A DNA stretch of 51,168 nucleotides from a virus (taxonomy: Duplodnaviria > Caudoviricetes): positions 1 to 51,168 of IMG/VR virus record IMGVR_UViG_3300023099_000120. The stretch is one strand, 5' to 3'. Shown one piece after another: positions 10,720-51,168 of the stretch. The notes below the pieces were generated by a model. It ran no database searches and was not told the DNA's origin. It saw nothing but the letters and a program-made list of their open reading frames with translations. A program made the translations under genes and the position numbers. Numbering within the stretch: the stretch's first letter is position 1; each line of letters starts with the position of its first letter.

Positions 10720-12078
10720 ATGAAACCAAAAACCAGATTGCAAGTAGAAGTTTGGAATCTTCATAAGAAACTTTCCGAACCAATAGAACATGAGCCGTTT
10801 GTCATTTCAAAGCATGATTTTTATTACACCACTCACTATAAGAACCTTGTATGCTTAGAATGTAACCACACGTGGAAACCAGAAACTGAAACTAAAAAAA
10901 ATGTTTCAAATGTAATCTGTCCTTCGTGCAAAAAGAAAGTGAAAAAACTGGCTATTCATAACGGGCAGTTTATTAGAATACTAAGTTATTCTGTCGTTCA
11001 GGTCGTTGACAGATTTCAGGTCTTTCGATATTATTCTTGCTGGAAAATCATGGATAAAAATAAAAAACCAAGATATAACTTCCGAAGTTTATTTGAAGAA
11101 TGGACTGAGTACGATAAAAATAAGAAAGTAGTAATAGGTAAAAATACTACCTGGTCCGGTGATGGATTTAGTTCCTCTGATTACGAAGTTCGTTATAATA
11201 ATCCACGATACGGTCAAAGTGAATACGATCGATTTGCATCTGATTTTAATTGTCCTGGTGCAGAGTTTCATCCGAGGTTTAAAAAATATGGTCTCAGTGT
11301 AGATTTTCATAATTGTGACTATCGTTACCTACTCAATAAACTTGAAAGAAGTTCACAAATTGAAACTCTTTTAAAAGCGAAACAAAAAGAACTTTTGTTT
11401 TATGCGGTCCATAAAGATGAACGGTATTATTCGTTTTGGCCACAAATAAAGATCGTGCTCCGAAATAAATACAAAATTAAAGATGCCGGTATGTGGTACG
11501 ACTACTTGGAATTGTTGAAATACTTCAAAAAGGATATCCGAAATCCAAAAATAATTCTGCCTAAAAACCTTAAGAAGGCGCACAATGAATTTGTCGTGAA
11601 AAAGCAAAAATGTATAGATAAGGAAAGAGCCGCACAAGAAGTGAAGCGCCAAGAGAATGAGAGATTACGTGCCGAAGCTGAAACTGCTCTAAAAAATATA
11701 AAGACTGAAGTATTTAAAGGTTTCTCATTAAAACAGGGAAAGCTTTTAATTGTTCCATTGATTGAAGATAATGATGTTAAGGAAGAAGGTAAAATATTAA
11801 AACATTGCGTTCATACAAATAACTATCATAAAAAGTCTGGTATACTACTTATGTCCGCTAGAATTGATGGCAATCGGATTGAAACAATTGAGATTTCATT
11901 AGCAACATATTCAATTATTCAGTGCCGTGGATTCGATAATAAACCAACCGAATTTCACGATCAAATTATTGATGCCATAAAGAAAAATATGGGCAAGATC
12001 TCGAGATTAGTTGAAAAGCAAAAGCAATTTAAAGAGGTTGACTCAAAATTAAAAAATCTGCAAAATCACGCAGCATAA
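10720..12078 (+). CDS. PcfJ-like protein
   Basis: N-terminal CxxC..CxxC; WYDYL...LKKAHN; EEG..LKHCV; ETIE...IIQCRG..N. Confidence 0.85.
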   Translation: MKPKTRLQVEVWNLHKKLSEPIEHEPFVISKHDFYYTTHYKNLVCLECNHTWKPETETKKNVSNVICPSCKKKVKKLAIHNGQFIRILSYSVVQVVDRFQVFRYYSCWKIMDKNKKPRYNFRSLFEEWTEYDKNKKVVIGKNTTWSGDGFSSSDYEVRYNNPRYGQSEYDRFASDFNCPGAEFHPRFKKYGLSVDFHNCDYRYLLNKLERSSQIETLLKAKQKELLFYAVHKDERYYSFWPQIKIVLRNKYKIKDAGMWYDYLELLKYFKKDIRNPKIILPKNLKKAHNEFVVKKQKCIDKERAAQEVKRQENERLRAEAETALKNIKTEVFKGFSLKQGKLLIVPLIEDNDVKEEGKILKHCVHTNNYHKKSGILLMSARIDGNRIETIEISLATYSIIQCRGFDNKPTEFHDQIIDAIKKNMGKISRLVEKQKQFKEVDSKLKNLQNHAA

Positions 12079-12095
12079 CCACTAAAAACAACATC

Positions 12096-13211
12096 ATGAA
12101 CTTCATTCTAAATAGTAAAAATTTACTCGACAAGCTATTAATTCTAAACGGAGTTATCAATTCGTCAAATACGCTTCCAATTCTGGATTGCTTTTTATTT
12201 GAAATCGATGGAAATCAATTAAAAATTACAGCCTCAGACTTAGAAACTACTATTACTTCAACGCTTGAAATTACCTCATCAGACAAAGGATCAATTGCGG
12301 TACCATCCCGAATGCTGATCGATATACTAAAAGCTTTCCCGGAACAGCCGCTTGATTTTTTTGTCAATGAAAATAGCACGATCGATATTAATTCCGGCGC
12401 TGGAGTTTATTCGATAGCTTATGCACTTGCAAAAGAGTATCCGCAAGCTGTACTAATCGAAGATCCTCAAACCGCAACGATCAATTCTAAAATTTTAGGA
12501 AAGGCGATCACTAAAACAATTTTCGCAACTGGTACCGATGATTTAAGACCGGCCATGAGCGGAGTGTTATTTCAATTTTCGCCTTTGGGATTAAATTTTG
12601 TTGCGACTGATGCGCATAAATTGGTAAAATACCAAAGATCCGATATTACATCTGCAGAGGAAATTGATTTCATTGTTCCTAAGAAACCTCTGAATGTTCT
12701 AAAAGGAATTCTCTCGACATTGGATATCGATGTTTTAATTTCCTTTAATCAGACAAATGCAATTTTCACTTTTGAAGATTATGTTTTAATGTGTCGTTTA
12801 GTTGATGCCACTTATCCAAAATATGAAAACGTAATACCAAAGGATAATCCAAACAAGGCAATTATTGACAGATCTAAACTTTTAAGTTCCGTTAAGTGTG
12901 TTTCTATTTTTGCAAACAAAACAACAAAACAAGTTGCGTTGAACTTCACTGGCAATGAAATTAATCTTTCTTCTGAAGATGTGGACTATTCTAACAAGGC
13001 AGATGAGCGCCTAAATTGTAATTACGAAGGTCAAGATACTAAAATCGGTTTCAATGCGAAATACCTCGCTGAAATGATCAGCAATTTAAGTTCAGAAGAA
13101 ATCAAATTCGAATTTTCTTTACCAAATCGAGCTGCGATTTTAACTCCGATTGATGATCAGGATGATCAAGAGAAGATCCTGATGTTAATTATGCCGTCAT
13201 TAATAAACTAA
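12096..13211 (+). CDS. dnaN: DNA polymerase III beta sliding clamp
   Basis: TLPILD.FLF, ASDLET, ATDAHKL, GFNAKYL, LIMP; 371 aa. Confidence 0.96.
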   Translation: MNFILNSKNLLDKLLILNGVINSSNTLPILDCFLFEIDGNQLKITASDLETTITSTLEITSSDKGSIAVPSRMLIDILKAFPEQPLDFFVNENSTIDINSGAGVYSIAYALAKEYPQAVLIEDPQTATINSKILGKAITKTIFATGTDDLRPAMSGVLFQFSPLGLNFVATDAHKLVKYQRSDITSAEEIDFIVPKKPLNVLKGILSTLDIDVLISFNQTNAIFTFEDYVLMCRLVDATYPKYENVIPKDNPNKAIIDRSKLLSSVKCVSIFANKTTKQVALNFTGNEINLSSEDVDYSNKADERLNCNYEGQDTKIGFNAKYLAEMISNLSSEEIKFEFSLPNRAAILTPIDDQDDQEKILMLIMPSLIN

Positions 13212-19940: not shown

Positions 19941-20461
19941 ATTTCTTCAAACTCATCGTATTCAAATTCATCCTCGCTAGGGTAATCAGGAATAAACACA
20001 AGTGGAATATCTAAATCGATTTGTGTAATAATTATCGCTTCTTCATATTTGGTAATTATCGGTTCCAGTAATGGTTTCAACTCAAAATGCTTGTCTTCAG
20101 ATTTTATAATCTGAGTTTCATTGTCGAGCCATTTTCCCTCTTTATTTTTAGCTTTCTGTACAACTTTTAAAATTTTGTTGTAAAGAATTTCAAGACACTT
20201 ATTGACGTGGTAATCCAAAACCTCAAATCCTTCTTCAAACAACTGAGTTGGATAACTGTAATTCGTCAATTCCATTCTGCTGTGTAGAAGCTGAGTGAAA
20301 TATTTTATATACAGTTGATTATCTATGTGTGCGTAATAATCTGTAGGATCATCGGATACTGGTCTTTTCATCTTTTCAGCTATCTTATCAAATACTTCTT
20401 GCTGCTTTGGGGTAAATGAGGATTTCTTTTCTTCCATGTTTATAATTTTATGCAGCTTCAA
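19937..20461 (-). CDS. Hypothetical protein in the SRAP operon
   Basis: Overlaps the SRAP stop; acidic tail. Confidence 0.75.
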   Translation of the reverse strand: MKLHKIINMEEKKSSFTPKQQEVFDKIAEKMKRPVSDDPTDYYAHIDNQLYIKYFTQLLHSRMELTNYSYPTQLFEEGFEVLDYHVNKCLEILYNKILKVVQKAKNKEGKWLDNETQIIKSEDKHFELKPLLEPIITKYEEAIIITQIDLDIPLVFIPDYPSEDEFEYDEFEEI

Positions 20462-21080
20462 AAGCCACTAATTTAGCTTCATAAGGAAATGCAAATCTAG
20501 ATACATCATTTGTAGGGTCAAGCCAAGCTTGCTCATCCTCTTTTCGAAGCATTACAGGCATCCTTTCTCTATTATTGTGAATGTATTTCATTAATTCGTT
20601 TGCTTCTGTCGTAACCATTGTATACGTCTTTAAACTTTCACCAGTTGACGGATTTAGCCAAGTATCATATAATCCTGCAAAACAGAAAATTTCATCGTTT
20701 TGAGAAAATATTTGATACTTTTCTTTCTTCTTCCCTTTGGGATCTAACCAACGCCATTCGTAATAGCCAGTCGCTATTATCAAACATCTATTTGACTTAA
20801 TGTTTCTATAAGAAGGTTTTGAATCAAGATCTTCTATTCTTGCATTTAGTTTGCCAGTTCTGAATTCTAACTGTTCAATACCTGCCCATGAAGGCATCAA
20901 GCCCCATGTAAAATCAGTTTGGACTTGATCGGGATCCGTATTTGTAATAATAGGAATGTTAGGATGATCAAATCCATTCACAAAAACACCTTCATAATAT
21001 TGGCCAGTATTGTTCACAGAAATATTAAAGCGGATCTTTACATCTCGGCGACTTCCTTTTTGATCTACATAGTAGCACAT
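20448..21080 (-). CDS. SRAP/HMCES (YedK-like) abasic-site crosslinking protein
   Basis: Met-Cys N-terminus, WGL.P.W, NAR.E, RCLI...GYYEW, FAGLY, IH..RMPV. Confidence 0.93.
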   Translation of the reverse strand: MCYYVDQKGSRRDVKIRFNISVNNTGQYYEGVFVNGFDHPNIPIITNTDPDQVQTDFTWGLMPSWAGIEQLEFRTGKLNARIEDLDSKPSYRNIKSNRCLIIATGYYEWRWLDPKGKKKEKYQIFSQNDEIFCFAGLYDTWLNPSTGESLKTYTMVTTEANELMKYIHNNRERMPVMLRKEDEQAWLDPTNDVSRFAFPYEAKLVAFEAA

Positions 21081-47477: not shown

Positions 47478-47897
47478 ATGATTTTAAAATATATACCTGA
47501 TGGTAGTTTGGTAATTGGATTACTAATTATGTGTGCTTTAGATTTTGTGTTTGGGGTTACAAAAGCAACATTGACAAAAACTATTAGAACTTCGAAAGGG
47601 TTCAGAAAGACATTTACCAAATTCACTCAATATGGAGGTGCTATTGTGATGGGAATAGTTCTTTTAAATATAAAAAGCGTTAGCGATAGCAGATTTGGAA
47701 GTGAATACTCGAGTCTATTTGGGGATTCGATGATAAGTATAATGATTTACATTGAAGTTGTTTCGATTTTGGAAAACATGGAAGTCATAGGAAAAGATAC
47801 TGATTTTGTAAAATATTTTATCAGACCAGTTCGACGATTAATCACTTTTCAAGTAAAAAATTTATTCTCTGATACAGGGAATATAATAACTAAATAA
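47478..47897 (+). CDS. Holin (phage holin family 4-like)
   Basis: TM helices, LDF..GV.KA, S.G.RK...K, EV.SILEN. Confidence 0.88.
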   Translation: MILKYIPDGSLVIGLLIMCALDFVFGVTKATLTKTIRTSKGFRKTFTKFTQYGGAIVMGIVLLNIKSVSDSRFGSEYSSLFGDSMISIMIYIEVVSILENMEVIGKDTDFVKYFIRPVRRLITFQVKNLFSDTGNIITK

Positions 47898-47906
47898 TTT
47901 ATAAAA

Positions 47907-48383
47907 ATGGACAAAGCTACAGAACAAAGAATTGCGCAATTGCATCCAAATATTCGTCAAGAAGTTACCAATATCATTAACGAATGTAATCGTTCACTTA
48001 CTGGGAGAGCACAAGTGAGAATTTCTCAAGGTTTGAGGACATTTAAAGAACAGGATGATCTTTACGCGATAGGTAGAACTAAGCCAGGGAAAATAGTAAC
48101 GAATGCCAAAGGTAGTCAATCGATCCATAATTATGGTTTCGCGGTCGATATCGTGTTGATCATTGATGGTATGACGGCTTCATGGGACACTGCAAAAGAC
48201 TGGGATGGAGATAAGATCTCGGATTGGACAGAGTGTGTAAACATATTTAAAAAATCTGGTTGGTCCTGGGGCGGTGATTGGAAAACGTTTAAAGATCTTC
48301 CACACTTTGACAAAAAAGGATTTTCTGACTGGAAAGTCCTAAGCAAGCTTAAACGAGATAAAAATAACTACGTAATTATCTAA
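47907..48383 (+). CDS. Endolysin, M15 family (L-Ala-D-Glu peptidase-like)
   Basis: G.RT..EQ..LY..GRT.PG.IVTNA.G.QS.HNYG.AVD, WGGDW..FKD.PHF. Confidence 0.93.
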   Translation: MDKATEQRIAQLHPNIRQEVTNIINECNRSLTGRAQVRISQGLRTFKEQDDLYAIGRTKPGKIVTNAKGSQSIHNYGFAVDIVLIIDGMTASWDTAKDWDGDKISDWTECVNIFKKSGWSWGGDWKTFKDLPHFDKKGFSDWKVLSKLKRDKNNYVII

Positions 48384-48384
48384 T

Positions 48385-49002
48385 ATGCAGCTATCATTAA
48401 TAATTCAGAATATAAAAACTCTTTTGATCGGTGTAGCAATTGTTGCTGTTGTTTGGTTTTATAAAGATTATACTTTTCAAAAATCTGAAAATGAACGACA
48501 AACTGAAAATGCTAACCAAGTTCGAAAGCAAGATAGTTTGCATTTTGCAAGTCAATTATTGTCAAAAGATGAACTAAGCGATTATCTGCAGTATGAAAAT
48601 TCAGATTTGAAAAAGAAGCTTGTTAATGCTGGAATAAAAGAAAGTAGAATTAAAAGTATAATTTCCCAAACTTTAAAGTACCGAGATACCACAAAAAGAG
48701 AAACTGATGTTTCCGGATTAGTTGAAGCAATTAAAAATCGCATTCCTAGATCTCAATCCTGGAGTGACACAACAAAATGCATGACCGTAAGCGGAGTTGC
48801 TTCTTTTGACGGACAGAAACTCAAGGTTGTCGTAATTGATCGCCAGTTCAATAATAAATCGGATGCAGTTGCTTATTGGGAGCGCAGGGAGTGGAGTTTT
48901 TTAGGAATTAAGACTCGTTTTCTAGGTAAGAAGCAATTTACTTCTAAAGTATTTGATGAATGCGGAGAAAGCCGGACAATGAAAATTGAAAAGAAAAAAT
49001 AA
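48385..49002 (+). CDS. Spanin-like lysis accessory protein
   Basis: N-terminal TM and periplasmic helical region directly after the endolysin. Confidence 0.55.
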   Translation: MQLSLIIQNIKTLLIGVAIVAVVWFYKDYTFQKSENERQTENANQVRKQDSLHFASQLLSKDELSDYLQYENSDLKKKLVNAGIKESRIKSIISQTLKYRDTTKRETDVSGLVEAIKNRIPRSQSWSDTTKCMTVSGVASFDGQKLKVVVIDRQFNNKSDAVAYWERREWSFLGIKTRFLGKKQFTSKVFDECGESRTMKIEKKK

Positions 49003-49004
49003 TA

Positions 49005-49141
49005 TCCTGGAGGTGTAAATAAAAATATCCTCCAACAAATAAAAACACTTCTCACGGTAATTTATATTTAGCACAAGCCAGCGTTGGAGGACAGAAGTCT
49101 TCTATGCTGGCTTTGTTATTTTAATAAATTCCGTGAGAGGT
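49005..49141 (+). promoter_or_regulatory. Structured RNA leader (long hairpin with alternative pairings)
   Basis: 49047-49057 pairs with 49131-49141 and the helix continues to a short loop near 49093-49096; TCCTCCAAC (49028-49036) is complementary to GTTGGAGGA (49083-49091). Confidence 0.7.
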
Positions 49142-49179
49142 ACAAATGTAATAATCATCAATCATCAATCAAAGAACAA

Positions 49180-49830
49180 ATGGAATTAAAAATCAACAAG
49201 TATCATGAAATACTAAATACTATTATTAGTAAAGGAAAACGTCAAGAAAATAAGAAAGGATCTATAACATATTTACTAAATCAAGTAATTGTTTTTAAGC
49301 CTATCGACTTATTGGATCTTTTTGAGAGTCATGCTGTTGCGAAAAAGAAATTAAAAGACGAATTGGTTTTATTTATGGCAGGGGAACGTTCAACTGAGGC
49401 TTATCGTGAAATTGGTGTATCATGGTGGGATTATTGCGGGCCGATATTAGTAAATAGCTATCCAACATACTTTGAGCAGTTGCCGAAGCTCATTGAAAAA
49501 ATCAAAAGTGAAAAAAGAACTTCTAAGAATTATGTTTTGTTTTTGGGCGCAAATAATACTGAAAGTAATCAGCAGCCATGTTTAAGTTTAATACAGTTTC
49601 AAATCGATAAAGGTAAACTTATAATTAGCGCTTATCAACGAAGTTCAGATGCAAGTTTAGGATTGCCTTCCGATATTTATCATTTATACCTTATTAGCAA
49701 ACAGATAGATCTAGAATTAAAAAGTATAACGATTTTTTTAGGTAATGTCCATATTTATGAAAATAATTTAAAATCGACCAAGCAATTACTTAAAGGAGTG
49801 CCAGCGACATTTAACTTGAATGTCGGTTAA
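49180..49830 (+). CDS. Thymidylate synthase-family protein, divergent (216 aa)
   Basis: QPC..LIQF, YQRSSD..LGLPSD, GNVHIY; the ATG at 49180 is preferred to the TTG at 49084 buried in the hairpin. Confidence 0.88.
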   Translation: MELKINKYHEILNTIISKGKRQENKKGSITYLLNQVIVFKPIDLLDLFESHAVAKKKLKDELVLFMAGERSTEAYREIGVSWWDYCGPILVNSYPTYFEQLPKLIEKIKSEKRTSKNYVLFLGANNTESNQQPCLSLIQFQIDKGKLIISAYQRSSDASLGLPSDIYHLYLISKQIDLELKSITIFLGNVHIYENNLKSTKQLLKGVPATFNLNVG

Positions 49831-49848: not shown

Positions 49849-49886
49849 AGAAAAAGCAATCATTACTGATCGCTTTTTCTTTTTTT
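49849..49886. terminator. Bidirectional terminator
   Basis: AGAAAAAGC...GCTTTTTCT followed by a T-tract, between convergent genes. Confidence 0.75.
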
Positions 49887-50007
49887 CCAGCTATCGTTGT
49901 GATATTTATTGCTAGGATGTCCTTGAAACTTTTTAACTAGCAATGCTACTACAAGGACAATTACTGCTACTGTTATTAAAATGTCGGATAATTCCATTTG
50001 AAAATTT

Positions 50008-51168
50008 TTAAAAGTCCGGTGACTTTTCCATAATTTGGTTTCTATTTACTTCTTTTACAACTTTTGCATATCTCAAGGTCATCATTTTTGAGGTGTGGCC
50101 GTATAGTTCACGAAGAGCATCAAGTTCTACGCCTGCCAGAATTTTTTTGTTTGCTCCAAGATGTTTTAACGAATACATGTTGACATTTATTTTAAGTCCG
50201 TCAATAATTAATTTTCTCCATAATTTAGAAGCACAATCTCTATTCAATCTTCGCGGCCCAGGAATGAAATCTAAATCTTTTTTTAAGCCACGATTTGTAA
50301 ATTCTCTTTTTGAGCCAAATACAAAATATTCATCTGGATAATCCGAAAGCTTCATTTCTTCAAAATAATTTTTCAGAAAGGGGTTTAATGGAACTATTCT
50401 TTCGATATCGGTCTTTGTTATTTCCGGAGGTAATACAATTTGTGATTTTTGTAGATTGATCATCTTTAATTTAATATGCAAAAGTTCTTCAGGTCTGATT
50501 CCGGTATGAAAGATCGAAATTATGTAAACGTAAAAACTCGGGAATTCAACAAGGATTTTTTCCTTTATTAGTTTCACTTCTTCATCAGTTGCCGGAGTGA
50601 AAGCGGTAATTTCGCCAACCTTTAAAGATTTTATCCCGTGCGCTGGGTTATTCTCTATTATATCCCATTGCATCAGTTCAGACAAAATTGCCTTTAGATA
50701 ACCTAAATTTTTATTGAATGATTTATTCGACCACTTTCGCTGCTCTTTTGTTTTCTCGATAATTAATTTTATATGGATCCTTTTAGTATCGGCTACAAGA
50801 AGTTTCGTCATATTAGTAGCTTTTAAAGCTTCCTTTATGAACTTGACTGTGCTTTTATAACCACAAAGAGTTTTGCTTCCTAGATTTGGCGTTTTCTTTT
50901 CAATAGCAAAATCTAAAGCTTCACTAAACGTCAGGCAGCTAAAATTATTTACTACATCCGGAACATTTGGATTCCATCCTTCTTTGAGTTTTTGAAGTAA
51001 AGCATCACAAATTATATTTGCTTCGGCTTCTCTTTTCTTAAGATTTGTAATGTAGTTTATTCCGTATTTGTAACGGAAGAGTTTGCCGCTATATCTAAAA
51101 AAGACAAACCACGGCTTTGAAAGATCGTCATACTTGACAAGCTTTGGGATTGTGTAAATTGATTTCAT
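50008..51168 (-). CDS. int: Tyrosine integrase
   Basis: TGIRPEE, TKT, YSLKH, GHT, RY catalytic motifs (Bacteroidota-type). Confidence 0.95.
   Translation of the reverse strand: MKSIYTIPKLVKYDDLSKPWFVFFRYSGKLFRYKYGINYITNLKKREAEANIICDALLQKLKEGWNPNVPDVVNNFSCLTFSEALDFAIEKKTPNLGSKTLCGYKSTVKFIKEALKATNMTKLLVADTKRIHIKLIIEKTKEQRKWSNKSFNKNLGYLKAILSELMQWDIIENNPAHGIKSLKVGEITAFTPATDEEVKLIKEKILVEFPSFYVYIISIFHTGIRPEELLHIKLKMINLQKSQIVLPPEITKTDIERIVPLNPFLKNYFEEMKLSDYPDEYFVFGSKREFTNRGLKKDLDFIPGPRRLNRDCASKLWRKLIIDGLKINVNMYSLKHLGANKKILAGVELDALRELYGHTSKMMTLRYAKVVKEVNRNQIMEKSPDF

Follow-up and report, generated by a model that had tools for sequence, protein, structure and literature searches.

A thymidylate synthase relative with cytosine-type residues behind a candidate RNA leader in a temperate Bacteroidota phage

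Introduction

What does a relative of thymidylate synthase (TS; ThyA in Escherichia coli) do beside the integrase of a temperate phage: does it make thymidylate, or does it help to modify cytosine? The question is raised by an open reading frame (ORF) of 216 amino acids (aa) plus stop codon, at 49180-49830 (+) of the IMG/VR virus record IMGVR_UViG_3300023099_000120. This record, a complete provirus of 51168 bases (97% complete by CheckV), was analysed at its full length and is referred to below as the window. An earlier, model-made reading of the letters (hereafter the sequence-only reading) had described the gene as a thymidylate synthase homologue with a cytosine-type specificity residue, in the position of the mom gene of phage Mu. 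Based on the residues of the active site, on an RNA leader in front of the gene and on the genes found behind the same leader in other phages, we think that the gene probably encodes a folate-dependent C5 one-carbon transferase of deoxycytidine monophosphate (dCMP) that serves phage DNA modification. The phage DNA is most likely marked in this way against host restriction.

Fold and active-site residues

In a profile search, the protein matched the Pfam family PF00303 (Thymidylat_synt) with 85 bits (cut-off 24.3; E 6.3e-24), and it matched PHROG 160 with E 4.6e-30. None of the NCBIfam ThyA equivalog models reached its cut-off (best 68.5 bits versus 327), and PADLOC gave no match. E. coli ThyA (from NC_000913) and gp42 of phage T4 (from NC_000866), the dCMP hydroxymethylase (dCH), were aligned with the family as references. 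BLASTP against E. coli ThyA gave 24% identity (E 2e-19), with LGLPSDI lying on LGLPFNI, while the match to T4 gp42 was marginal (E 0.003). An alternative, longer frame that starts with TTG at 49084 would cross the upstream hairpin, and the homologues begin with MNKYH; 49180 is therefore the sensible start. The window has ATC as the counterpart of the homologues' ATG, and its frame opens four codons earlier, with MELKINKYH (49180-49194).

An AlphaFold2 model built from 15 sequences reached a predicted local distance difference test (pLDDT) of 93.3 and a predicted template modelling score (pTM) of 0.91. Foldseek ranked ThyA structures first for this model (TM about 0.8). A structural search against representatives returned four ThyA representatives at Z 20.7-21.3, with 3v8h as the best match (Z 21.3, root-mean-square deviation 2.2 over 201 aligned residues), followed by the flavin-dependent dCMP monooxygenase 9iqc (19.8), MilA (18.4) and T4 dCH (17.3); no other fold scored above Z 4.2. 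The C-terminal FNLNV aligns with the ThyA C-terminus past an internal deletion, and the model confidence falls to 73 in the last block. The PF00303 match and the confident ThyA fold bear out the homology, and alignment and structure prediction against ThyA and T4 gp42, the check that the sequence-only reading had proposed, place ThyA closer than gp42.

The motifs quoted in that reading are all present, namely QQPC (Cys134), YQRSSD (Arg154, Ser155, Asp157), VHIY (His191, Tyr193), LGLPSDIYHL, ENKKGS, KRTSKN and PCL. The active sites were compared by sequence alignment only (Table 1), and the residues were followed through 161 copies of the gene, taken from viral and genome loci that had been located by scans. 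Trp83, Asn92, Tyr94, Ser115, Lys116, Asn117, Gln131, Cys134, Leu135, Arg154, Ser155, Asp157, Asp165, His191, Tyr193 and Asn214 are found in 161/161 copies, and Glu61 in 160/161. The catalytic set of the superfamily (Cys146, Glu58, Arg166 and Asp169 in ThyA) is thus retained as Cys134, Glu61, Arg154 and Asp157. Beyond what had been noticed before, the equivalents of Tyr94 and Glu58 are kept, Leu143 is Gln131 and Trp83 is Cys86. Out of the four phosphate-binding arginines (Arg21, Arg126', Arg127' and Arg166), only the equivalent of Arg166 (Arg154) is kept.

Table 1. Residues of E. coli (Ec) ThyA and their equivalents in the phage protein
Ec ThyA	Phage protein	Basis
Arg21	Lys25 or Lys26	alignment
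Glu58	Glu61	alignment
Trp80	Trp83	alignment
Trp83	Cys86	alignment
Tyr94	Tyr94	alignment
Arg126	Lys116	alignment
Arg127	Asn117	alignment
Leu143	Gln131	alignment
Cys146	Cys134	alignment
His147	Leu135	alignment
Arg166	Arg154	alignment
Ser167	Ser155	alignment
Asp169	Asp157	alignment
Asn177	Asp165	alignment and BLASTP
His207	His191	alignment
Tyr209	Tyr193	alignment

The phage protein resembles E. coli ThyA (EC 2.1.1.45) in its fold, apparently in its C-terminal end, and in the catalytic Cys, Glu58, Trp80, Tyr94, Arg166, Ser167, Asp169, His207 and Tyr209. It differs in having Asp177, Leu147, Gln143, Cys83, Lys21, Lys126 and Asn127 (ThyA numbering). It is also about 48 residues shorter, with two internal deletions at roughly Ec 95-110 and 222-257, and it is basic instead of acidic (isoelectric point, pI, above 8.8 in 12/15 family members versus 5.6-6.2 for ThyA and T4 gp42) and prophage-borne in a DNA-modification slot.

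Asn177, by which a canonical dTMP synthase recognizes uracil, is replaced by Asp165 in 161/161 copies. Together with Leu135 at the position of His147, likewise in 161/161, this upholds the cytosine-type specificity residue claimed earlier. According to PMC8670742, TS becomes a dCMP methylase through N177D, and in the MetaGPA study positions 177 and 147 best separate cytosine-modified from unmodified phage contigs; the phage protein reads Asp and Leu at these two positions. We regard it as very unlikely that the gene is an ordinary auxiliary thymidylate synthase, which would supply dTMP for phage replication. The invariant Asp and Leu, the equivalog models far below their cut-offs and a slot that otherwise holds DNA modifiers argue against this explanation, even though the public names of the relatives are all "thymidylate synthase" and ThyA is the nearest match among solved folds and in sequence.

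The product of the reaction is harder to read from the residues. According to PMC13326640, a bulky Leu143 accompanies a methyl product, Asp or Glu at this position accompanies a hydroxymethyl product, and D169N marks the flavin-dependent 5-hydroxy-dCMP synthases. In PMC6400193, the T4 dCH signature consists of Ser-x-Tyr and an acidic residue (Asp or Glu) three positions ahead of the Cys, and the D145N variant is reported as inactive. The phage protein has the T4-type Asp at 177 (Asp165), but its residue three before the Cys is Gln131 in 161/161 copies, and where T4 has Ser94 and Tyr96 it reads Asn92-Ser93-Tyr94, with the Asn aligned with T4 Ser94. The pair of Asp177 and Leu143 expected of an N177D-type methyltransferase is present in its Asp, while position 143 is Gln, and instead of D169N all 161 copies have Asp157. 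For MilA and BcmA, PMC5175136 attributes the preference for ribose to Ala at the position of Ser167 and Lys at that of Arg126'; the phage protein has the Lys (Lys116) but keeps the Ser (Ser155).

The retained Asp157 argues for folate, not flavin, chemistry, and the retained Ser155 for a deoxyribose preference. By its residues, the family is of the cytosine type and the folate type and probably of the deoxyribose type. The signature fits neither the methylase rule nor the T4 hydroxymethylase rule, and both a methyl and a hydroxymethyl product are kept as candidates. The cytosine half of the earlier proposal, a dCMP (hydroxy)methylase, is supported, whereas the signatures of the T4 hydroxymethylase and of the Leu143 methylases are absent. 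More distant relatives of 250-270 aa, at about 30% identity, mostly combine Asp177 with Leu143 and SRR; in one of them, P0207 (266 aa), the Gln, S-R-N and Asp pattern is already there and the longer C-terminal part is kept.

An altered phosphate site, with Lys for Arg126, which recalls Lys133' of MilA as described in a passage of PMC5175136, would also suit an enzyme of the MilA/BcmA kind that acts on a ribonucleotide (cytidine monophosphate, CMP) or another cytosine compound and whose product is not meant for DNA. We consider this highly improbable: Ser155 is the residue to which the same passage assigns the deoxyribose preference (as Ser167), no N-glycosidase or antibiotic-pathway genes lie beside the gene in the loci examined, and the context of the slot points to DNA modification.

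A structured RNA leader

The start codon is separated from the upstream gene by 177 bases with a strong fold, in which 49060-49135 has a folding free energy of -29.2 kcal/mol (z -6.3). When 67 distinct copies of this leader were analysed with RNAalifold, a long-range helix (P1) and the core of a hairpin enclosed by it (H2) were recovered. The H2 core, 49086-49092 with 49097-49102, is invariant in the 67 sequences and is followed by a U-rich run to about 49122. All eight P1 pairs (8/8) show compensatory changes; 91.6% of the cells pair versus 79.5% in shuffles (0/500 reach this value), and the covariation score is 0.381 versus 0.170 in shuffles (0/500) and 0.06-0.11 in slid controls. On the + strand, G.U pairs outnumber A.C pairs by 228 to 19 (102 to 19 when the two invariant pairs of the core are left aside), and at the same sites a covariance model gives 97-115 bits for the + strand versus 35-46 for the - strand. 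The structure therefore belongs to the + strand RNA.

The covariance model finds the leader in 104/162 sources, among which the 67 model-building sequences match by construction, in each case immediately in front of the cassette and at no other place in 1.8 Mb. One stretch, L058:4251-4476, was excluded from the alignment because of its distance from the cassette. The leader travels with the cassette, and where a methylase gene comes first, the leader lies upstream of the methylase. A search of 48900-49300 against Rfam 15 gave at best 21.7 bits versus a gathering score of 74. The leader may thus be a candidate new cis-regulatory RNA, and the cargo slot that it appears to mark is undescribed as far as Rfam and literature searches show.

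Hairpin H0, just past the upstream stop codon, has a 3' arm (consensus GTCCTCC) that is complementary to the 5' core of H2, GGAGGAC (49086-49092). A possible attenuator is one in which the 3' arm of H0 pairs with the H2 core and melts the terminator-like H2. By visual reading of the sequences, the upstream stop codon lies in or beside H0 in many loci. The hairpins around the gene were detected by folding only; a simple scan of the window found 0 terminators, and promoter-like sites were no more frequent than in shuffled sequence. No rightward promoter was recognizable between the leader and the start codon, either by reading the sequence or by the scan.

Directly behind P1 lies the box CAAAnnTA, whose variation is limited to the nn positions (67 leaders, alignment A4). 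Read as its reverse complement, the box is identical to TAnnTTTG, the -7 promoter consensus of Bacteroidota. A leftward promoter at this place would overlap P1, whereas the structure favours the + strand; a minus-strand small RNA starting from the box was set aside as an unlikely functional RNA, since the G.U bias and the model scores favour the + strand.

Cargo of the leader-marked slot

The exact leader pattern was found in at least 83 IMG/VR stretches, and 79 new loci were analysed. In 38/79, the ThyA relative and/or its partner, a DNA methylase of the D12 class described below, lies within 1.5 kb downstream. The first gene behind the leader in the remaining 41 loci is given in Table 2.

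Table 2. First gene behind the leader in 41 loci in which the leader is followed by other cargo
First gene	Loci	Support
Another D12 methylase	7/41	E about 1e-25
Mom homologue	7/41	PF25680, E 1e-64
N6/N4 methylase	5/41	PF01555
C5 cytosine methylase	3/41	PF00145, E 2e-44
42-45-aa ORF and ABC-like protein	11/41	227-232 aa where complete
Unannotated 194-aa protein	1/41	
Unclassified, several with short flanks	7/41	

One more copy of Mom is second in line, behind a C5 methylase; the loci with Mom-family genes are L177:316-1053 (-) (PF25680 E 1e-64), L169, L181, L194, L210, L221, L233 and L236. Families of upstream ORFs are common to different cargo types, so related phages swap cargo at a fixed place. 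The leader that the ThyA relative has in common with Mom and DNA methylases argues for a role in phage DNA modification and is the strongest evidence for it. The role in DNA modification proposed by the sequence-only reading gains support from this leader and from the D12 pairing (61/81 and 39/79 loci, see below). Of the position claimed there, that of Mu mom, the slot holds, because Mom homologues stand behind the same leader; the phage type does not, the phage not being Mu-like.

Mu Mom and the orphan phage methyltransferases, single-gene systems of anti-restriction DNA modification, share the slot, the leader and related Bacteroidota phages with the ThyA relative. They differ from it in sequence and fold, and they act after replication, whereas an enzyme of the ThyA type is expected to act on the nucleotide.

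The pair of a conserved 42-45-aa ORF and, behind it, an ABC-like ATPase is a separate observation (L172:9657-10480, L191, L202, L206, L211, L219, L228 and others). The ATPase has 227-232 aa in seven loci, ends at the contig edge in three and has 376 aa in L198; its Pfam match, to ABC_tran, is weak (E 1e-5). In L218 and L240 the pair stands behind a C5 methylase. It may have an unknown function in DNA modification or anti-restriction.

Spread of the family and its methylase partner

More than 100 database clusters are 80-86% identical to the ThyA relative; their sources are Flavobacterium genomes and metagenomes, and most are 212 aa long. When 1.84 billion representatives were searched exhaustively without a profile, 42 clusters appeared at E < 1e-30, many of them fragments. 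At least 488 viral stretches and at least 453 species-representative genome stretches carry relatives, in prophages of Bacteroidota that include Flavobacteriales, Sphingobacteriales, Bacteroidales and others. Among deposited phages, close relatives (64-66% identity) occur only in 21 Bacteroides records of the Hankyphage type, followed at 27% by td genes of the T4 type. Two cassettes, on different contigs or at different sites, occur in some single genomes (L091/L104, L100/L107, L089/L098 and L120/L147), presumably reflecting two prophages. Our literature searches found no paper on the family of short ThyA relatives, its methylase pairing or the leader; PMC8541194 concerns a ThyX-type enzyme and was put aside as irrelevant.

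A protein of about 280 aa on the same strand adjoins the ThyA relative in 61/81 viral loci (60, plus L014 on recount). The locus counts leave out L001, which is the window itself, and one of 80 genome loci that had no ORF-level match. In the first 60 viral loci the partner lies downstream in 31 and upstream in 29, and the stop and start codons often overlap. The partner is a D12-class DNA amino-methyltransferase (PF02086, E about 2e-8; PADLOC MTase_II, E 4e-51 to 7e-63), with the motif DPPY in 60/60 copies and FxGxG in 54/60. Among the 79 genome loci, which have longer flanks, 39 have the D12 partner, two have a C-terminal remnant only and 38 have none; the window falls in this common lone-gene class.

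The ThyA-relative domain also occurs within 14 longer database proteins. In P0281 and P0283, a full ThyA relative and a full D12 methylase share one frame. Seven Bacteroides clusters (P0273 and P0275-P0280) have enzyme residues 1-200 fused to methylase residues 73-284, deletion hybrids that lack the S-adenosylmethionine-binding FGGSG motif and the C-terminus of the enzyme. Complex prediction for the cognate enzyme and D12 methylase of L003, with 15-row alignments, gave a score of 0.00, which weighs neither way on binding.

Over the same 15 loci that have both genes, the mean column identity is 81% for the ThyA relative versus 59% for the neighbouring methylase. This conservation indicates strong purifying selection, and the odd residues are therefore a fixed signature, not decay.

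The Hankyphage p00 protein DAC76694.1 (BK010646.1, 41030-41668 of 42831 bases) is about 65% identical and belongs to the family. Its gene occupies the right genome end, with an N6 DNA methylase next in line and a diverged leader upstream (45.5 bits, E 1e-4). In contrast to the window, p00 is a transposable Bacteroides phage with a diversity-generating retroelement, and an 80-aa ORF (L002:19689-19931) stands between leader and gene. This ORF, with a helix-turn-helix-like C-terminus, is present in the Hankyphage-type cassettes of L002 and 21 other loci; its only Pfam match is a weak one to a winged-helix family, and it could be a small regulator. The idea of an activator of the Mor/C kind, suggested by a resemblance only, was dropped. 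The Hankyphage paper in PLoS Biology names the right end the "methyltransferase end" and reports that all phage genes are expressed upon silencing of the repressor. Our literature searches found no discussion of the function of the Hankyphage ThyA relative.

The phage and its gene order

The phage is a temperate one of the Flavobacterium type. The window encodes an SMC-like ATPase, RecT, an MBL-fold protein, an SNF2-type helicase, PcfJ, a DnaN clamp, a NinB-like protein, a DnaC-like loader, a Holliday-junction resolvase, an SRAP protein, a small terminase and a portal. It has no transposase and carries RecT, the small terminase (TerS), the portal and a tyrosine integrase; this gene content rules out a Mu-like phage, and the Mu-like frame of the sequence-only reading falls. 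Holin, endolysin, a 205-aa protein and the ThyA relative follow one another, and only a 44-codon ORF on the minus strand and the integrase come after them (Table 3). The 205-aa protein, judged by its hydrophobic N-terminus, would be membrane-anchored. The hairpin behind the ThyA relative is a possible two-way terminator, shared with the 44-codon ORF.

Table 3. Features around the ThyA relative in the window
Feature	Position	Strand	Evidence
Holin	47478..47897	+	PF05105, E 1.3e-10
M15 peptidase endolysin	47907..48383	+	PF13539, E 1e-18
205-aa protein, hydrophobic N-terminus, last gene before the slot	48385..49002	+	without Pfam match
Hairpin H0 (GGAGG ... CCTCC), just past the upstream stop codon	49008..49034	+	fold z -2.4; CCTCC columns conserved
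Structured RNA leader, 5' edge of the slot	49039..49159	+	covariance model R1, 96.8 bits, E 4.5e-14
Helix P1, 5' arm	49048..49057	+	pairs with 49131-49140
Hairpin H2, variable outer stem, core GGAGGAC/GTCTTC with two G.U pairs	49076..49112	+	folding
Helix P1, 3' arm	49131..49140	+	RNAalifold and covariation
Box CAAAnnTA, directly 3' of P1	49143..49150	.	65/67 aligned leaders
Terminator-like hairpin and U7 run 3' of the ThyA relative	49849..49887	+	fold z -2.9; simple scan silent
44-codon ORF, hydrophobic core, between ThyA relative and integrase	49863-49997	-	ORF list
Tyrosine integrase, end of the provirus record	50008..51168	-	PF00589, E 1.8e-11

Six-frame searches of the window found no dUTPase or dCTPase, MazG, thymidylate kinase or dCMP deaminase, and the window ORFs scanned included no polymerase, in agreement with the earlier statement that no kinase, dCTPase or polymerase lies nearby. 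The same kind of search found no D12, N6/N4 or C5 DNA methylase and no Mom (PF25680), and since no other methylase or Mom is present in the window, the ThyA relative is the only DNA-modification candidate of the phage.

Three further genes of the window were noted in their own right: a phage-encoded DNA polymerase III beta clamp at 12096-13211 (+) with three DnaN domains (E 1e-23 to 1e-26), an SRAP (SOS-response-associated peptidase) protein at 20448-21080 (-) with E 3e-43, and a PcfJ-like protein at 10720-12078 (+).

The gene lies at the prophage end beside the integrase, between two terminator-like hairpins, and it moves among unrelated phages: within four ORFs on each side, the endolysin of the window recurs in only 3 and its integrase in only 2 of the 79 genome loci. 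Both observations would suit a moron acting on the nucleotide pool, in which a modified nucleotide made by the lysogen harms superinfecting phages or adjusts host metabolism. We hold this to be decidedly unlikely, as a rightward promoter is not recognizable between leader and start codon, PADLOC gave no match, and the leader in common with Mom and DNA methylases points to the modification of phage DNA.

Discussion

In the reading that we favour, an enzyme of the ThyA superfamily would have been switched from deoxyuridine monophosphate (dUMP) to a cytosine nucleotide, most likely dCMP, and would place a methyl or hydroxymethyl group on C5 from methylene-tetrahydrofolate. Its gene would be cargo of a DNA-modification slot that ends the late/lysis operon of temperate Bacteroidota phages and opens with the leader, the long-range P1 around the terminator-like H2. 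Late transcription would read through the leader and express the gene, and the enzyme would convert dCMP during infection. The kinases and the replisome of the host would then bring the modified base into progeny phage DNA, which would be less sensitive to restriction.

The dCMP hydroxymethylase of phage T4, gp42, has as partners the gp56 dCTPase, the gp1 kinase and glucosyltransferases. Genes for gp56 and beta-gt are annotated near gene 42 in NC_000866; gp42 belongs to a lytic phage with partner enzymes, whereas the ThyA relative is alone in a temperate phage. Asp at 177, Lys at Arg21 and a small residue for Trp83 are common to the two phage enzymes, and gp42 serves anti-restriction DNA modification (PMC6400193). 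Unlike the ThyA relative, which matches it marginally in sequence and less well in structure than it does ThyA (Z 17.3), gp42 has Asp145 and Ser-x-Tyr, where the relative has Gln131 and Asn-Ser-Tyr, and it keeps both SRR arginines.

The N177D-type dCMP methyltransferases comprise engineered TS of E. coli and L. casei and the enzyme of phage XP12. They have Asp177 and an otherwise ThyA-like active site; a C-terminal tail, which the ThyA relative appears to retain, would be compatible with hydride transfer. Leu143, which these enzymes are expected to keep according to PMC13326640, is an invariant Gln in the ThyA relative. The 5-hydroxy-dCMP synthases (RB69 gp48 and DLP3 gp80; PDB 9iqc), whose substrate is dCMP, share the ThyA fold (Z 19.8) and Asp177; they are characterized in PMC13326640 by D169N and an acidic residue 143, where the ThyA relative has Asp169 and Gln143.

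Several points weigh against the favoured reading. The signature matches no characterized product class, and Gln stands at the position of Leu143/Asp145, where the passage of PMC6400193 on T4 reports D145N as inactive. With two Lys and one Asn in place of the phosphate arginines, a substrate other than dCMP is possible. The six-frame searches found no deoxynucleoside monophosphate (dNMP) kinase, dCTPase/dUTPase, MazG or dCMP deaminase in the window, and a passage of PMC13326640 describes only trace incorporation in E. coli for ThyA homologues without a cognate dNMP kinase, so a lone enzyme may modify DNA poorly. All other cargo of the slot acts on DNA after replication, and a pre-replicative enzyme fits less neatly among it. 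The strong upstream hairpin with its U-run could also block expression.

In another reading, the enzyme would act directly on cytosine in finished DNA (or RNA), as a folate-dependent polynucleotide C5-(hydroxy)methyltransferase of the ThyA fold that, like the methylases and Mom alternating with it, needs no helper genes. ThyA and the DNA C5-methylases share the chemistry of a Cys at C6. The gene is alone in a slot whose other identified cargo consists of post-replicative DNA modifiers, the window has no kinase or dCTPase, and natural fusions to a DNA methylase exist. The arginine clamp for a free 5'-phosphate is reduced (Lys116, Asn117, Lys25/26), two surface segments of ThyA are deleted, and the pI is high in 12/15 members, although AT-rich phage proteins are often basic. 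To our knowledge, no enzyme of the ThyA fold acts on polymers. The equivalents of His191 and Tyr193 bind the free 3'-OH in ThyA, T4 dCH and MilA, as stated in a passage of PMC5175136; these 3'-OH ligands and the phosphate ligands Arg154 and Ser155 are invariant, which argues for a mononucleotide, and we rate direct action on the polymer as decidedly improbable.

A bolder combination, which we consider unlikely, is that the ThyA-fold enzyme alone suffices to put a C5 group on the cytosines of phage DNA, either directly on DNA with methylene-tetrahydrofolate as donor or through a new C5 product of the Gln143/Asn127 site, and that an undescribed RNA leader gates its expression and marks a plug-and-play slot of temperate Bacteroidota phages, common to Mom, Dam-like, N4/N6 and Dcm-like methylases and the 42-45-aa ORF with its ATPase-like partner (about 230 aa).

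Under the favoured reading, action on dCMP for phage DNA modification, the finding matters beyond this phage. The combination of Asp177, Gln143, Asp169, Lys126 and Asn127 is new and stands outside the published rules for methyl, hydroxymethyl and hydroxy products, and it is therefore a test of them. A widespread family, including a member in the globally common gut Hankyphage, is probably misnamed, as its residues point to a cytosine-modifying enzyme and its names read "thymidylate synthase". If the virion DNA carries modified cytosine, this would have consequences for restriction and host range, for nanopore and bisulfite reads, and for the engineering of phages of the gut and of fish pathogens. 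The leader is a tag in sequence and structure for a slot that holds four known kinds of DNA modifier next to unknown genes, and it may be used to find new functions in DNA modification or anti-restriction.

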